Of a stretch of 44,521 nt of DNA, positions 38,784 to 43,105 are shown in pieces. Under the pieces are notes generated by a model. The model was not told the origin of the DNA. It saw nothing but the letters and a program-made list of their open reading frames with translations, and searched no databases. How positions within the stretch are numbered: the stretch's first letter is position 1; every line of letters begins with the position of its first letter. The translations under genes and the position numbers were made by a program. Source of the DNA: a virus (Duplodnaviria > Heunggongvirae > Uroviricota > Caudoviricetes); IMG/VR virus record IMGVR_UViG_2541047878_000001, positions 1 through 44,521 of that record; one strand, written 5' to 3'.

Positions 38784-39338
38784 ATGCTTATTGGCTATGT
38801 ACGCGTATCAACAAATGACCAGAACACCGATCTACAACGTAATGCGCTGAACTGTGCAGGATGTGAGCTGATTTTTGAAGACAAGATAAGCGGTACAAAG
38901 TCCGACAGACCAGGACTGAAAAAGCTGCTCAGGACATTATCGGCAGGTGACACGCTGGTGGTCTGGAAACTGGACCGACTGGGGCGCAGTATGCGGCATC
39001 TTGTCGTGCTGGTGGAGGAGTTGCGCGAACGAGGCATCAACTTTCGTAGTCTGACGGATTCAATTGATACCAGTACCCCAATGGGGCGCTTTTTCTTTCA
39101 TGTGATGGGTGCCCTGGCTGAAATGGAGCGTGAACTGATTGTTGAACGAACAAAAGCTGGACTGGAAGCTGCTCGCGCACAGGGACGAATTGGTGGACGT
39201 CGCCCCAAACTTACACCAGAACAATGGGAGCAGGCCGGACGATTAATTGCAGCAGGAATTCCTCGCCAGAAGGTAGCGATCATCTATGATGTTGGTGTAT
39301 CGACACTGTATAAGATGTTTCCGGTCGGAGATAAATGA
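38784..39338 (+). CDS. Serine DNA invertase (Gin/Pin/Hin/Cin family)
   Basis: N-terminal catalytic region MLIGYVRVSTNDQNTDLQ and C-terminal HTH; start at ATG after AGGGGG; adjacent to the invertible fibre segment. Confidence 0.85.
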   Translation: MLIGYVRVSTNDQNTDLQRNALNCAGCELIFEDKISGTKSDRPGLKKLLRTLSAGDTLVVWKLDRLGRSMRHLVVLVEELRERGINFRSLTDSIDTSTPMGRFFFHVMGALAEMERELIVERTKAGLEAARAQGRIGGRRPKLTPEQWEQAGRLIAAGIPRQKVAIIYDVGVSTLYKMFPVGDK

Positions 39339-39377
39339 AACCGCAGGCTCGTCGTATGCAAGATCGTGCTGCGGTTT
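39338..39377. repeat. Repeat family copy a (imperfect hairpin; also terminator-like)
   Basis: AAACCGCAGGCTCGTCGTATGCAAGATCGTGCTGCGGTTT; about 89 percent identical to the core of copy b by hand alignment. Confidence 0.5.
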
Positions 39378-39396
39378 ATGCTTATCACTTAAAGAC

Positions 39397-40221
39397 TCAA
39401 AAATTAGGTGAGTAACGGACCGGGGACATAGCTCCTTTTTTTCTTAATTCATCTGGTATTTTTTTTCCAAGATAAAGATTTGCTATTTTAGGTGGGGCTT
39501 CTCGACCTTCAAAACCATAGCGAGAACTTTGTGTTGCCTCAAAGTCAGGATCTTCGTCCCAGTATTTCATCGTAGGGAAATTTTCACGTGTTGATTTGAG
39601 CCATTTATCAGCAATGAAAACTCCTCGAACGATCCCCCTTACAGTAGCAAGAATGACTTCTGCTTGGCTGGCGCGAGAGACATTAATGCGCCAGCTAAAT
39701 CGAACCGCATCATAAAGCTCTGAATCCTTTGCACTTCTGTTAACGGAAATCATTAATGCTTTATGATGAAATGTTATGGTTTCGGGTTGATATGTTGCTA
39801 TCAACTCTTTGACATGCGCGGCGCCGAATTCATTGCTGCCAGCACCATTCATGATATTCGTTAACCCAGGGTAGGCATCAATAAGTGCTGCTTCAACTTC
39901 GTACGCCGTCTTTTCATCAGTCATTCCGTGTCGATGGATGACATGGATAACCTCAAGTCCTGCTAACCTTATTTCTCTAATTTGCTTTAGCTTGTTGCTC
40001 AGTAACTCGTCATCATCAGTCGCTGCCACTTCACCGCGCATATGGGCAAATACGCGGTTACCTTTGCCTTTCCCTACATAGAAGGTGCTTCCGTCCCTCG
40101 GATCAATCAATCGGTATACATACCAGCCAAGGTGTTCAATTACTCCAGAAGGAAACTCAGTAATATCCATTTTGCAATATCTATGAATTATTTGTGAGAC
40201 GTATATTAATGAACATTGCAA
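39397..40221 (-). CDS. GIY-YIG nuclease-domain protein with uncharacterised C-terminal domain (274 aa)
   Basis: N-terminal GIY-YIG-like motif ([27 protein letters not shown]) then a conserved R and E; AT-rich; immediately downstream of the invertase. Confidence 0.55.
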
Positions 40222-40356
40222 GGGCTCACAACCAGTAGTGTTGAGAAAACTATCGGGTAAATGAGGCTAATCCTTTGAATTTACATAGTAAAAAAAGATA
40301 CTTTTCCTCATAGTGTGAGCTAATTTTATGTTTCGTTTGATGATCGGACCGGTCTC

Positions 40357-40435
40357 AAAAACCGCAGGCACGTTGTATGCAAGAACGTGCTGTGGCTGGC
40401 TGGTGAACTTCCAATAGTGCGAATATTGAATGATG
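40357..40435. repeat. Repeat family copy b
   Basis: AAAACCGCAGGCACGTTGTATGCAAGAACGTGCTGTGGCTGG... shares its left core with copy a and about 65 bp (about 86 percent identity by hand) with copy c. Confidence 0.5.
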
Positions 40436-40592
40436 TCCAGCCGTTACCGTTTTTACGTGTTTATTAGTGAACAAACCACTCGTCAGCAGACTCCTAGGTA
40501 TGAACAAAAGTTTTAGCTGAAACTCTATCTGTGGTGCGCGTAACAGAAGTGTAATAAAAGGCCCTAGAAAAGGGCCTAAGATTAGCAAAGAT

Positions 40593-40735
40593 TATCCTCG
40601 ATACTTAGAGGCAGGAATTTTGATAGGAAAGGCTGCCAAGCCTTTTTGACGAGCAAAGATCCGTTTACCTTTGACCGTAATAAAAGGACGGTAAATTGTG
40701 ATGTATTCCTCAGATACAGCTTTTTCAATGGTCAT
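40593..40735 (-). CDS. Small ORF (47 aa), not in the supplied ORF track
   Basis: ATG..TAA ORF read by hand (MTIEKAVSEEYITIYRPFITVKGKRIFARQKGLAAFPIKIPASKYRG), followed on the minus strand by hairpin AGGCCCTTTTCTAGGGCCT plus T-run. Confidence 0.3.
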
Positions 40736-40761
40736 ATCGTGTTACCTGTAAAGTTTCGCTG

Positions 40762-40862
40762 TTGACAAAACCTAAGGTAAGCGTATACTCACAACCGCCA
40801 AGTTTTTCGTATTTGCTTACGATAGGAGAAGCCAGCGACAGCGGTTCGCTGGCTTTTTCGTT
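40762..40862 (+). ncRNA. Candidate small RNA: near-consensus sigma-70 promoter followed about 45 nt later by an intrinsic terminator
   Basis: TTGACA, 17-bp spacer, TATACT at 40762-40789, then hairpin GCCAGCGA-CAGCGGT-TCGCTGGC plus TTTTT at about 40833-40860. Confidence 0.3.
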
Positions 40863-41394: not shown

Positions 41395-41397
41395 TAT

Positions 41398-41775
41398 TCA
41401 GTCCTTTAACATTTTATTAAGCTTATCGAGTTGCTCTGGACTCAGGTCCTTAAATTTACGAGCAAAAACAAGCATTAGTTCTTTGTTCTGCTCATTTGCA
41501 TCCGACATATCAACCTTAATGGACGGTTGAGAAATCTCTGCCTGTTTCTTGAGATTGATGATGTCTTGTCCGCTAAGCTCAAAAGTTGTTGCAATCGTAT
41601 TTACTAATGAGTCCGGTATAGCTCTTTTGCCTAATTCAATGGCGGATAAGTAAGCCGAACTAACGCCTAACAGATCAGCCATATTTTTGAGCACCATACC
41701 CCGGTCTATTCTCATTTTTCTGAGAGTCTTACCAAAGCTAGTTACCATGTTGCGCCTCCTACAATCCATGCTCAC
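41398..41775 (-). CDS. XRE-family HTH transcriptional regulator (ImmR-like)
   Basis: HTH (LRKMRIDRGMVLKNMADLLGVSSAYLSAIELGKR) at the N-terminus; upstream partner of the ImmA-like gene. Confidence 0.7.
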   Translation of the reverse strand: MSMDCRRRNMVTSFGKTLRKMRIDRGMVLKNMADLLGVSSAYLSAIELGKRAIPDSLVNTIATTFELSGQDIINLKKQAEISQPSIKVDMSDANEQNKELMLVFARKFKDLSPEQLDKLNKMLKD

Positions 41776-42081
41776 TTATACTAAAAACCAAACTCAAGAT
41801 CAACAAAAATTGTAGAATTTTTTAATCTCAGCGTGTGATGACAATCTACATAAAATCATGAAATGGTGCAAGGCGTAACTTAAAAAATACCATATGTAGT
41901 GTCAATTTTATGTGCTGTATGGATATATGGGGTTGGTAAACTTTTGCTCTTTTGTGCTCCTCAGCTATATGGTTGTTTGATTTTTGAACATCTTGTGGAA
42001 CATAAATTGGGTTTATGCTTTTCCCTTTCGGTGACAACATGTTTATAGGATGTATAATCCATAAAAAAAGGAGGGGATGGC

Positions 42082-42843
42082 GTGCAAAAGAATTTGTTAC
42101 AATTATGCTACGAAGGAGAGTGTGGAGAAAATTATATCCGTAGCATGAATGAAAAAGGGCAGATTTTTGTTTCACTTTCAGATGTGCTAAGAACGCTTTC
42201 TGCTGAGAACAGAAAACTGGATGGAAAGACTTCTCAAAGCTTGCTCACTGTAATAAGAGCGGTAATAAAAACTTTAGATCCAGATGAGTTTAGGAATGTT
42301 TCTCTTGTCGTGGATGGTGAAACTATCTCTGAGGTATTTCTTACTGAACCAGGTCTATATAGAGTACTTGCTCAGGATACTACTGCTGCGGGGAAAAAAT
42401 TCCAACGCTGGCTTTTTCATCAGGTCCTTCCGTCTATTCGTGAATTTGGTGTATATCCTCCGCCACCTAAGCAAGAACGTTCAGAACTGAGTGCTTTTGC
42501 TAACAGTCTGCAGCAGACGGTTCAAGCATTGGTAATGGAAATAGAAAAACGTGAAGAGTTAGAAAGTAGAGTAAACCAAGTTGAACTAAAAGTTAACTCG
42601 TTAGAAAGTTTAAGAGATTTGTCTCAGTTCAGAAGTGTTCCTCAACGATTGATGGAGTTAGGTTTGGATACCTATTCGGTTGAGGAGCTTTGGCAATGGT
42701 GTGAAAAATTGCGTAGTGAACGTGGAGCAGAAAGAATTAAGTGCCCCTCCGGATTGAATATAAATTCTTGCTATCCATTAGCTTTGGTTGATGAAGCTAT
42801 CGCTATATACCAGAAAGTAGTTGAGGCAAGAACACGTCAGTGA
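42082..42843 (+). CDS. Bro-N domain protein (antirepressor-like)
   Basis: Bro-N-like region (FLTEPGLYRVLAQDTTAAGKKFQRWLFHQVLPSIREFGVY) and coiled-coil C-terminus; divergent from the XRE/ImmA pair; GTG start after AGGAGG. Confidence 0.6.
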   Translation: MQKNLLQLCYEGECGENYIRSMNEKGQIFVSLSDVLRTLSAENRKLDGKTSQSLLTVIRAVIKTLDPDEFRNVSLVVDGETISEVFLTEPGLYRVLAQDTTAAGKKFQRWLFHQVLPSIREFGVYPPPPKQERSELSAFANSLQQTVQALVMEIEKREELESRVNQVELKVNSLESLRDLSQFRSVPQRLMELGLDTYSVEELWQWCEKLRSERGAERIKCPSGLNINSCYPLALVDEAIAIYQKVVEARTRQ

Positions 42844-42857
42844 GCTTGAGGGAAAAA

Positions 42858-42885
42858 AAAGCCCGCATAAGCGGGCTTTTTTATC
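42858..42885 (+). terminator. Rho-independent terminator
   Basis: A8-GCCCGC-ATAA-GCGGGC-T6 hairpin immediately after the Bro-N gene. Confidence 0.6.
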
Positions 42886-43007
42886 ACTCGGGAGCTGCGG
42901 CTCCTTTGCGTATCCTTTTTTGTCTCCTCACCGTCTGGTCGGTGTCCTGCTGAGACTGCTAACATCCTGTTTTTGTTGGTGTTGTCCTTACACCGTCCAA
43001 TCATGAT

Positions 43008-43040
43008 TGGTGGAGCTGGCGGGAGTTGAACCCGCTGACA
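43008..43040 (-). other. tmRNA (ssrA)-like 3'-terminal fragment (T-arm plus acceptor plus CCA), candidate att-site remnant
   Basis: Minus strand reads GTCAGCGGGTTCAACTCCCGCCAGCTCCACCA, matching the 3' end of enterobacterial tmRNA as I recall it; no tmRNA body or tRNA 5' half is present. Confidence 0.35.
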
Positions 43041-43105
43041 CGTCGTATGCAAGAACTTGCTGCGGCTGGATGGTGGACTTTCGATAGTGCGAGTATTGAA
43101 TGATT
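43031..43105. repeat. Repeat family copy c
   Basis: CGCTGACACGTCGTATGCAAGAACTTGCTGCGGCTGGATGGTGGACTTTCGATAGTGCGAGTATTGAATGATT, about 86 percent identical to copy b over 65 bp (hand alignment). Confidence 0.5.

Follow-up and report, generated by a model that had tools for sequence, protein, structure and literature searches.

Accessory genes of lambdoid phages (morons), each with its own promoter and terminator, lie between the core modules, and short non-coding sequences common to unrelated flanks mark the recombination joints. Juhala et al. 2000 and Clark et al. 2001 reportedly described such linker or boundary sequences at mosaic joints in HK97/HK022 and HK620. The locus discussed here, in a window of 44,521 nt that is the whole stretch analysed (virus record IMGVR_UViG_2541047878_000001), shares this architecture and its non-essential b-region location. 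It differs in that one element of about 40-185 nt, which we call E, is reused up to three times in 4 kb and is nearly universal in E. coli genomes.

There are partial parallels with three other systems. The defence hotspots of P2-like prophages and P4-like satellites also carry variable anti-phage cargo at a fixed position, between conserved landmarks (Rousset et al. 2022, PMC9122126; Vassallo et al. 2022, PMC9519451), and here the slots are occupied alternately by PD-T4-3, restriction-modification (R-M), retron Ec48, Septu-like or CapH/CapP-like genes. However, our slots are in lambdoid or e14-like phages, several stand in series, and the landmarks are a repeated hairpin element and an attP arm rather than conserved protein genes. 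Integron attC arrays likewise have bulged imperfect palindromes between short gene cassettes, but here there is no IntI, attI, Pc or R''/R' box, and the cassettes run in both directions, are self-expressed and have breakpoints at no fixed position. Lambda sib/tI is a hairpin downstream of int across attP, and in HK97 E adjoins the annotated sib, with the attP core about 190 bp away; E is nevertheless a separate sequence, is farther from attP and is also found where there is no int upstream.

The copies of E and the genes around them

The features that concern us are as follows.

1399-1444, plus strand: 46-bp attL core of the prophage that carries the locus, consisting of the 3' part of thrW
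1459-2622, minus strand: thrW-type tyrosine integrase, the sole tyrosine recombinase in the window
38748-39338, plus strand: pinE-type serine invertase, which ends the tail-fibre module and adjoins copy a on the left
39338-39377, no strand assigned: copy a of E, hairpin only; candidate bidirectional terminator and mosaic joint
39397-40221, minus strand: cassette 1, GIY-YIG nuclease (LEM-3 GIY-YIG) that matches the PD-T4-3 family of anti-phage defence (PADLOC PD-T4-3, E = 8e-140); RefSeq start at 40170
40357-40500, minus strand: copy b of E, with hairpin at 40361-40395, UUUUUGAG next on the minus strand, about 70 nt of dinI 3' flank and a dinI remnant
40559-41775, minus strand: cassette 2, leftward operon, comprising the next four lines
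40577-40559, minus strand: the operon's own intrinsic terminator, predicted
40592-40735 and 40725-40874, minus strand: two small ORFs
40861-41394, minus strand: CapP/ImmA-like metallopeptidase
41398-41775, minus strand: CapH-like HTH protein
42082-42843, plus strand: cassette 2, rightward gene for a Bro-N domain protein, which stops at the terminator of the ssrA trailer
42846-43007, minus strand: ssrA trailer
43008-43035, minus strand: ssrA', a perfect 28-nt match to the E. coli tmRNA gene at its 3' end, covering T-arm, acceptor strand and CCA
43029-43126, minus strand: copy c of E, decayed: the stem has two mismatches, the U-tract is missing and the ssrA fragment is joined to the left base of the stem
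43127-43203, no strand assigned: conserved extension of E, with end motif CTGCTATGTGCCA; cargo rightward of it varies between prophages
43529-44521, plus strand: cassette 3, trypsin-like S1 peptidase, in a variable slot reaching from E and its extension to the thrW attP arm

A repeat search gave a three-copy family of 37 nt (39338-39374, 40359-40395 and 43029-43065; 84-89% identity to the reference copy) and a b/c pair of 98 nt (40359-40456 and 43029-43126; 82% identity). A 25-nt core pattern, allowed up to 3 mismatches, matched exactly the three copies, with 0 matches expected in shuffles, and the three copies reported by the sequence-only reading are thus real. So is its figure of about 86% identity between b and c over some 65 bp (56/65 for 40371-40435 against 43041-43105), and the gene layout agrees with its placing of the GIY-YIG gene and the block of small ORF, ImmA, HTH and Bro-N genes between copies. 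Its extent for copy a was right, but copy b reaches to about 40500, the added part being homologous to the 3' end of phage dinI. The ssrA piece does abut copy c, though in fact the two overlap by 7 nt (43029-43035). We also considered chance similarity or an assembly artefact and rejected both, given the shuffles, the same layout in independent complete genomes and thousands of homologues.

The hairpin of E has 12-bp arms, ACCGCAGnCACG and CGTGCTGCGGT, around a 13-nt loop; in longer copies the dinI flank of about 70 nt comes next, and some of them have an extension of about 80 nt after that. The extension is seen behind ssrA'-, pin- and lambda-type left flanks, with divergence about 10 nt past the end motif. 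The core had been read as hairpin-forming, and this holds for copy a (minus strand -15.1 kcal/mol, z -2.6; plus strand -20.9, z -2.9) but the fold is weak in b (z -1.0), and the hairpin of c (-8.2 kcal/mol) is missing from the MFE structure, where the ssrA T-arm folds in its place. Copy a begins directly after the pinE stop codon (TGA, 39335-39337), lies 20 nt past the stop of the convergent PD-T4-3 gene and has U-rich tails UUUCAUUUAU and UUUAUGCUU. Copy b holds a truncated C-terminal coding remnant of dinI (..SADEWFVH*, about 40455-40500), as aligned to the dinI-bearing phages PhiR63_1 and mEp460, and is 93% identical to PhiR63_1 over 144 nt spanning the dinI end; judged by this alignment it is the stump of a dinI gene.

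Distribution of E

E was found in 5409 of 5426 complete E. coli genomes, at a median of 3 places per genome, and in 196 phage records that include lambda, HK97, phi80, mEp460 and Stx phages; it is restricted to Escherichia and Shigella. Among 117 E-centred segments, the gene to the left, where recognised, is plus-strand tfa or pin, and the one to the right, where recognised, is a leftward gene, being dinI-int, PD-T4-3 or int directly. E sits at the border between a rightward late operon, ending in a tail-fibre assembly gene or the Pin invertase, and leftward accessory and integration genes, a region that corresponds to the lambda b region. In lambda itself E lies between ea47 and ea31, and as ea59/ea31 match Septu PtuA and PDC-M01, E borders defence-gene slots there too. 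We conclude that E, comprising the hairpin and the phage dinI 3' flank, is a conserved non-coding module of Escherichia lambdoid and e14-like prophages.

The repeats had been proposed as att-type junctions, a proposal that was to fall if they proved to be a widespread intergenic element. This is largely what they are, and lambda and HK97, which carry E, integrate elsewhere. The alternative offered at the time, that the copies are related terminator hairpins, is favoured by this distribution, with the qualification that the hairpin is nonetheless also a place where modules are joined.

E as a probable terminator

In most copies E resembles an intrinsic terminator, with a GC-rich stem-loop and U-tract on the leftward strand, and copy a, between convergent pinE and PD-T4-3, resembles a bidirectional one. 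Reference copies have folding energies near -20 kcal/mol (z -4.0 to -4.4), and mEp460 has UUUUUCUUUUU. Among 41 unique variants, most stem pairs are retained in 80-100% and the innermost pair counted in 63%, and the fixed chromosomal copy of K-12 has changes on both arms that leave the stem intact. In 23/41 variants the 8 nt that follow the stem include 5 or more U.

However, the 13-nt loop and conserved bulge are atypical of intrinsic terminators, and because they fall outside the rules of a simple terminator scan, copies a, b and c were not called by it. The leftward U-tract is missing in about one third of variants, including that of lambda, and termination thus cannot be the sole reason for conservation of E. 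Furthermore E is conserved in sequence, not in structure alone: the loop and 70-nt flank are conserved and phage copies have almost no covariation, a pattern that would fit recent spread or another sequence-specific role equally as well as a terminator. Copies a and b appear to be terminators at the ends of defence cassettes (PD-T4-3 and the CapH/CapP-like operon respectively). The hairpin and leftward U-tract would serve as terminator and insulator, copy a closing PD-T4-3 and, on the opposite strand, pinE, and copy b backing up the operon's terminator and shielding the PD-T4-3 promoter.

E as a mosaic joint

Left and right flank types occur around E in many combinations (pin or tfa_A with the GIY or dinI flank, plus others), and breakpoints fall inside the hairpin. 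In NS-NP030 a tfa-type left half is joined to an a-type right half, in L066, L088 and L130 an a-type left half is joined to a dinI-type right half (compare L066 with copy a of the window), and in PigCaeca_1 the junction of a type II R-M cassette, which replaces cassette 2, is within the loop of b. The slot of cassette 3 may instead hold retron Ec48, a 379-aa protein, an ATPase or others. Strains with empty or otherwise filled slots, sought as a check on the cassette idea, are thus in hand, the empty one being IMG/VR contig L059, which reads tfa, pin remnant, E, about 25 nt, attP(thrW) and int, its integrase fragment being identical to that of the window over the available 175 aa. These varied combinations, the breakpoints in the hairpin and the different cargo in the same slots mean that E is a mosaic joint. 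As the comparison shows, the three copies owe their origin to recombination at E.

The ssrA fragment and the attachment site

The ssrA' sequence, TGGTGGAGCTGGCGGGAGTTGAACCCGC at 43008-43035 in minus-strand gene sense, occurs once in the window (0 expected) and agrees at every base with the final 28 nt of the ssrA genes annotated in E. coli S1-KEN-03-A and JNQH497, so that the tmRNA-like match noted earlier holds against actual genes. The Rfam tmRNA model aligns the T-arm only (43019-43035, 16.3 bits, under the gathering score), hence ssrA' is a fragment and not a gene. The fusion to copy c also takes in about 135 nt of DNA close to the native sequence downstream of ssrA, the reference being JNQH497, which has no island at ssrA: about 42905-43007 barely differs from the ypjA-ssrA intergenic DNA native to E. 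coli, and the remainder of the trailer has a homologous bidirectional terminator hairpin (42857-42885) with compensatory changes. At the joint ssrA identity ends ...GTTGAACCCGC, the commoner form being GTTGAAACCGC. In S1-KEN-03-A the block from pin through a, GIY, b and ImmA/HTH to BroN is 99.3% identical and contiguous with the real ssrA gene, as the end of a prophage integrated there.

In phage LLS a 29-bp ssrA identity at the equivalent place is the deduced attP, and gene order matches, with invertase, cargo, BroN, ssrA attP and int (PMC12315714); the annotated attP is TGAACCCGCGCCCGTAATTC. As in the LLS attP and the CP4-57 attL/attR, the block in our window is the ssrA 3' end from T-arm to CCA, and the BroN-side arm is the same in LLS and the ssrA lysogen as beside ssrA'. 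In contrast to those sites there is one copy only, within a thrW prophage and without a cognate integrase, and E replaces the integrase-side arm. On this comparison ssrA' is the relic half of an ssrA-type att site. The earlier reading is upheld in that ssrA' and copy c together form a true recombination joint in which the core of an ssrA-type att site took part.

The host prophage uses thrW, with 46-bp att repeats, the identical attR core being 648 nt past the window end (window-equivalent 45169-45214) and ssrA' about 2.1 kb from attR. Serial insertion through ssrA-type att sites at the repeats, as suggested from the sequence, is not supported: copies a and b have no ssrA-derived sequence, the window has no ssrA-type integrase, and the ssrA core is single in the window so that nothing is flanked by ssrA att repeats. 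Nor was a cognate recombinase, which was to be sought nearby, found in the window, where the thrW-type integrase is about 25% identical to ssrA-type integrases.

Alternative explanations

It could be argued that an ssrA-specific tyrosine integrase made the joint at a secondary site, the E copies being latent pseudo-att sites with a stem base (TGAAACCGC) that imitates the ssrA core in its T-loop/T-stem half (TGAACCCGC). In this form the sequence-only reading is narrowed to what the data permit: an ssrA phage would have entered E of a resident prophage, and homologous recombination would have resolved the tandem to a hybrid. The joint is exactly within the att core, strand exchange would be expected there because of the LLS attP sequence, and pin-type copies give an 8/9 match, ATGAAACCGC. 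However, 4-9 bp of microhomology accounts for the joint just as well, with no need of an integrase. The fusion is common, being present in 567/5426 genomes, in prophages at thrW and prfC, but a single ancient event followed by spread, L074 and L112 being among the diverged copies, covers all 567. The lack of ssrA bases in a and b and of an ssrA-type integrase in the window also counts against it, the reciprocal joint (pin-TGAA to CCCGCGT-phage arm) is absent from the loci examined, and at the integrase-side att junction of a true ssrA lysogen there is no copy of E and the arm is unrelated to it. We consider this explanation of the joint unlikely.

We regard as very improbable that E is a dedicated functional site or RNA, be it an attC-like folded site at which a recombinase would move defence cassettes or a regulatory RNA such as a dinI 3'UTR-derived sRNA or sib-like processing site. 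Conservation of loop and flank beyond the needs of a terminator, the proximity to sib in HK97, the defence slots bordered even in lambda and a bulged hairpin attC-like in outline would all suit such a role. But no recombinase co-occurs consistently, as the genes to the right include integrases of four unrelated types or no integrase at all, the cassettes are in both orientations with their own promoters and terminators, and hairpin breakpoints are at differing positions. E has no Rfam match, we found no annotation or paper that names it or contains its sequence, and restriction to Escherichia and Shigella is expected of a young, spreading sequence.

Origin and significance of the arrangement

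The explanation that we prefer, with a probability of about 0.75 for the whole, is that E is a conserved terminator-like module and mosaic joint, and the ssrA piece a fossil half att site. E is the only sequence common to otherwise unrelated flanks, so that recombination between E copies of different phages swaps the content to the left or right, and with each accessory module carrying its own copy, three have accumulated here and split the cargo into exchangeable cassettes. The block from pin through a, PD-T4-3, b, CapHP and BroN to the ssrA trailer and ssrA' would derive from an ssrA-integrating relative. The single non-homologous joint, where the ssrA att core meets the E stem base, falls on the microhomology TGAA(C/A)CCGC; the ssrA piece would thus be a fossil and not a working boundary. 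Copy c is, tentatively, probably the E copy of the thrW-integrating recipient, although c-type extensions occur with several left partners, which counts against this assignment. The arrangement is ordinary lambdoid b-region mosaicism, in which a common prophage hairpin separates, and helps to shuffle, accessory anti-phage defence genes.

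Repeats in the cargo region of the thrW prophage

The window carries proA, thrW and a prophage of 43.8 kb whose ends are a perfect 46-bp direct repeat of the 3' part of thrW, and over the region compared (39300-43200) it is 100% identical to E. coli FDAARGOS_1284. The prophage has an e14/SfV-like tail module in which a fibre segment is invertible, and to the right of the invertase gene of this module, pinE, are three units of cargo and three copies (a, b and c) of a repeat that we call E. E is a hairpin, to which longer copies add about 70 nt of the 3' flank of a phage dinI gene and sometimes an extension of about 80 nt.

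1369-1444, thrW
1399-1444, attL, the 46-bp thrW core
1459-2622, thrW-type tyrosine integrase, the only tyrosine integrase in the window
38748-39338, pinE, invertase of the tail module
39338-39377, E copy a
40357-40500 (-), E copy b
42846-43007 (-), trailer, left of the ssrA fragment
43008-43035 (-), 28-nt ssrA fragment
43029-43126 (-), E copy c, decayed
45169-45214 (window-equivalent; 11870-11915 of contig L001), attR, 648 nt past the window end
Right of pinE, cargo unit 1: GIY-YIG gene
Right of pinE, cargo unit 2: two small ORFs, ImmA-like peptidase and HTH gene (-); Bro-N gene (+)
Right of pinE, cargo unit 3: S1 peptidase

The thrW site is occupied in tandem, with a truncated P4-type integrase (Arm domain only), a MarR gene and the vat autotransporter island directly past attR (L001 11916-15901).

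A repeat search gave a family of three copies (39338-39374, 40359-40395 and 43029-43065) and a longer pair, b and c, of 98 nt with 82% identity; the figure of 86% that the sequence-only reading gave for a 65-bp stretch of b and c is borne out, and its observation of three repeats and an ssrA-matching fragment is upheld. A 25-nt core pattern matches exactly copies a, b and c in the window, with none expected by chance. Aligned with mEp460 and PhiR63_1, copy a consists of the hairpin and nothing more, b has the downstream flank of phage dinI and its last codons (..SADEWFVH and stop) and is truncated near 40500, and c has the flank without the coding part. Chi is GCTGGTGG, and there are near-Chi octamers within E: b (40398-40405) has GCTGGTGA, as do most other copies, and c (43068-43075) has GATGGTGG. 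Shortly before the S1 peptidase gene there are also 16 nt, TAGTGCGAGCACTGAA (43439-43454), that resemble TAGTGCGAGTATTGAA of the E flank and may be due to chance or be another fragment of E.

Distribution and surroundings of E

Of 5426 complete E. coli genomes, 5409 matched a 144-nt query covering b, with a median of 3 places each, and so did 196 phage records that include lambda, HK97, phi80, mEp460, cdtI and many Stx phages. The E. coli matches are mostly unannotated or annotated as the end of a DinI-like gene, and E is a widespread intergenic element of prophages. A species-wide scan did not find E outside Escherichia and Shigella, apart from lambda contamination: the matches in Streptomyces, Enterococcus, Vibrio and others that would have given a wider range are 99-100% lambda DNA. 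The contaminated GTDB representative assemblies include those of Streptomyces, Enterococcus, Vibrio, Pseudoxanthomonas and Chromatium and several MAGs (contigs L134, L137, L139, L141, L143, L146, L147, L153, L156, L159, L161-L166 and L169-L171, 99-100% identity to lambda). No Rfam 15 family covers E at gathering score in the window, lambda, HK97, mEp460, PhiR63_1 or K-12 copies, and CssrB matches to a and b are noise, being of 15-18 bits against a threshold of 76 and absent from better copies of E. Literature searches by sequence and by topic found nothing describing E, which is apparently a nearly universal but unannotated landmark of E. coli genomes.

The surroundings were surveyed in 117 segments centred on E, taken from IMG/VR, the comparison loci and the window. 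Wherever the flanking gene was recognised, the left neighbour is a tail-fibre assembly gene or pin (+), and the right neighbour points leftward and is dinI (followed by an integrase of mEp460 type), PD-T4-3, or the integrase itself (HK97 and thrW types). In lambda E is at 24162-24265, between ea47 and ea31; in HK97 it has tfa on one side and the annotated sib site on the other, and the attP core is some 190 bp away. Although HK97 lacks a pin gene, its E is immediately preceded by some 20 nt that correspond to a pin invertase 3' end (..GGAGATAAATGA; L009 2480-2510), which suggests that E originated as the convergent intergenic region between pin and dinI. Contig L059 has the order tfa, pin remnant, E, about 25 nt, thrW-type attP and int, with an integrase fragment identical to that of the window over 175 aa; this order is the empty arrangement.

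The near-universal chromosomal copy of E in E. coli is between ykgJ and ecpE, and its stem is kept through changes on both arms. In K-12 the yagU-ykgJ-ecpE region (L007 1891-2680) has a tfa remnant, ykgJ and then E with a dinI stump, directly 3' of the ecp operon; the tfa remnant is matched by the Rfam sRNA candidate IS009, a model that also matches lambda tfa. The region is what is left of a lambdoid right end, fixed as a fossil in the chromosome of nearly all E. coli, and its E may now serve as the ecp terminator.

E as a hairpin

Copy a forms a stable GC-rich stem-loop (-15.1 kcal/mol, z -2.6) that folds on both strands, between the convergent pinE and PD-T4-3 genes. The hairpin of b is marginal (z -1.0) and that of c is lost, while reference copies are at about -20 kcal/mol and z about -4 on the leftward strand, with UUUUUCUUUUU after the hairpin in mEp460. 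Most stem pairs are retained in 80-100% of 41 unique variants, and the innermost pair counted in 63%; the pairs were counted by hand, RNAalifold having given only a trivial consensus because of a bulge and loop indels. A U-tract follows the stem in a (UUUCAUUUAU), in b (UUUUUGAG) and, counted as at least 5 U among the next 8 nt, in 23 of the 41 unique variants, and it is absent in c, lambda and several common variants. A generic terminator scan of the window did not call a, b or c. Copy b is 3' of the terminator (40577-40559) that belongs to the leftward operon of cargo unit 2 and ahead of the promoter region of PD-T4-3, and a and b are predicted to act as terminators or insulators. The suggestion that the repeats are related terminator hairpins is closer to what we find than the suggestion of att junctions, and the hairpin element is in addition the mosaic joint. 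At the level of sequence, the conservation of loop and flank exceeds what a terminator would need.

The ssrA fragment and its trailer

The 28-mer TGGTGGAGCTGGCGGGAGTTGAACCCGC at 43008-43035 matches the 3' end of annotated ssrA genes at 28/28 nt, a match that holds on alignment with real ssrA 3' ends. It is not part of a tmRNA gene: ARAGORN finds none, and Rfam aligns only model positions 347-363. A 108-aa ORF (42837-43163, -) that spans c, the fragment and the trailer is probably spurious.

E. coli S1-KEN-03-A has a lambda-tailed prophage in which the block of pin', a, PD-T4-3, b, ImmA/HTH and BroN recurs with 99.3% identity and runs directly into a real ssrA gene; homology with the window stops at 43035. 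The virion-sequenced phage LLS has the same order of invertase, cargo, ImmA/HTH, BroN, tmRNA pseudogene/attP and int, and its integration into ssrA was deduced by its authors from a 29-bp identity (PMC12315714).

Where strains have no island at ssrA, their native intergenic DNA between ypjA and ssrA is near-identical to the window between about 42905 and 43007, and the terminator hairpin ahead of 42905 is homologous to the native one, with compensatory changes. The likeness of the trailer to the DNA downstream of native ssrA indicates that ssrA-integrating phages carry host DNA past the att core. An ssrA 3' end followed by more than 100 nt of near-native downstream host DNA is seen in ssrA-integrating phages including LLS (window 42905-43007; L002 5320-5434; L172 4900-5058). 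This looks like an old capture by imprecise excision, and the captured DNA also gives the reconstituted ssrA its trailer and terminator.

The fusion of trailer, ssrA fragment and E is present in 567 of the 5426 genomes, in prophages at thrW (the window, NS-NP030 and PigCaeca_1) and at prfC. It commonly reads GTTGAAACCGCAG, one base off the GTTGAACCCGC of the window, and some copies are decayed.

E as a border of cargo slots

The flank types of E mix: left flanks ending at the pin stop or at the tfa stop each occur with PD-T4-3 or dinI on the right, and further combinations are seen. In NS-NP030 the crossover is inside the hairpin, whose left arm is mEp460-type and right arm a-type, and in L066, L088 and L130 it is again inside the hairpin, the left arm being a-type and the right side dinI-type. 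In PigCaeca_1 the whole stretch between the loop of b and the BroN terminator has given way to a type II R-M system. The conserved extension after c runs to 43203 and ends in CTGCTATGTGCCA. The cargo in the slot to its right varies: NS-NP030 has retron Ec48, the window the S1 peptidase, and others an ATPase and further genes. The stretch 43127-43215 (..CCTCCCACCGACCCTCCATGACTTTACACC..CTGCTATGTGCCA, then the semi-conserved AAAGCGGACAT) is kept behind many copies of E, just before the cargo diverges.

In PADLOC, cassette 1 is PD-T4-3 (8e-140), and the HTH/ImmA pair are CapH/CapP-like regulators. Cargo elsewhere includes type II R-M, retron Ec48, PDC-S15 and the Septu-like ea59/ea31 of lambda, with the empty state in L059. 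As in known prophage defence hotspots, the position is fixed between conserved landmarks, with alternating and often defence-related cargo across relatives. Lambda ea59/ea31 (L008 4348-6812) give very strong PADLOC matches (Septu PtuA, 5e-184; PDC-M01A/B), by which the slot right of E, in the non-essential b region of lambda, is occupied by a defence-like pair.

By these comparisons E is a patch common to otherwise unrelated flanks. The mixed flanks, crossovers within the hairpin and differing cargo together make the locus a multi-slot accessory or defence region, equivalent to the b region of lambda, with copies of E as the borders of its slots. The partition into cassettes seen in the sequence-only reading is real, and slots that are empty or replaced exist in relatives (L059, PigCaeca_1, NS-NP030).

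Other explanations of E

The sequence-only reading saw in the repeats a resemblance to att-type junctions left by serial site-specific insertion or recombination between elements that use an ssrA-type attachment site. The ssrA relic is real, but a and b, which share only AAACCGC with it, are not att junctions. The core is single in the window by pattern search with up to 3 mismatches, and no second core was found as a direct repeat there or in the stretches inspected rightward to attR. Nor is there an ssrA-type integrase in the window or beyond it: the thrW integrase is only about 25% identical to the ssrA-type integrases of LLS and S1-KEN, and past the window there is just the P4-type fragment, part of the vat island. 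The fragment also lies inside the prophage, the 46-bp thrW attR being about 2.1 kb away. Derivation of E itself from tmRNA fails, as only the 28 nt match ssrA, the alignment diverges immediately upstream, where the window has E, and the Rfam match is to the T-arm only. E might instead have been the integrase-side arm of an ssrA attP, but S1-KEN-03-A has a 30-nt ssrA' followed by TCTATTAATGG..DarTG and int, without E within 49 kb, so that E is not the natural partner arm of the ssrA core. In that strain a DarT/NADAR (DarTG) pair is between the integrase and the att core (L132 11758-13074), giving defence cargo on both sides of its attP.

A reading of E as an mEp460-type attP, with the K-12 ykgJ-ecpE copy as attB, is rejected: a lysogen at prfC ends ...E-dinI|prfC, which places the mEp460-type attP between dinI and int. 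The AAACC...GGTTT at the base of the stem gave the idea of a Pin/Gin-type crossover site, but the half-sites are about 27 nt apart rather than 2, the window's one perfect AAACCNNGGTTT falls within the tail-fibre gene, at 36884, and e14 pinE of K-12 is not followed by E. Integron arrays have IntI, attI and Pc beside them, promoterless co-oriented cassettes and attC sites with R''/R' core sites, whereas the cassettes here are on both strands with promoter- and terminator-like sites of their own, E has no GTTRRRY/RYYYAAC pair conserved across copies, and no IntI-like gene was found in the window. It is very improbable, in our estimation, that E, alone or with the ssrA core, is an active recombination target beyond being a homology patch, either as an attC-like folded and cut hairpin exchanging defence cassettes between lambdoid prophages or with the intact 28-nt ssrA core as a secondary attB. 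If the latter were true, incoming ssrA-specific integrases of phages, satellites or islands would load cargo into the b region of a thrW prophage.

Origin of the hybrid

The simplest history would be a hybrid of an ssrA-integrating donor and a recipient phage, in which the donor would have given the late genes and cargo up to the att core, and the recipient E, the cargo slot, attP and int. A single non-homologous joint would be required, at the microhomology TGAA(C/A)CCGC. We think it unlikely that an ssrA integrase made this joint between the ssrA fragment and E by recombining at a secondary site, as against illegitimate recombination.

Significance

Relic att sites and prophage defence hotspots are already established, as are morons that bring their own terminators and mosaic joints located in conserved non-coding sequence; no new mechanism is revealed and the practical value is modest. 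For prediction of prophage boundaries, an internal tRNA- or tmRNA-like fragment need not be an att site, and tools relying on such fragments could mis-call the end of this prophage. The locus would be a clean example of an integration module swapped, from ssrA to thrW, with half of the old att site and captured host DNA left behind. What may be novel is that this nearly universal element is named and shown delimiting b-region cargo slots across Escherichia lambdoid phages. Where lambda-like prophages have slots for accessory genes, E with the extension ending in CTGCTATGTGCCA stands at the left edge, and could be used as a sequence anchor for candidate anti-phage genes, in the way that conserved flanks are at P2/P4 hotspots.
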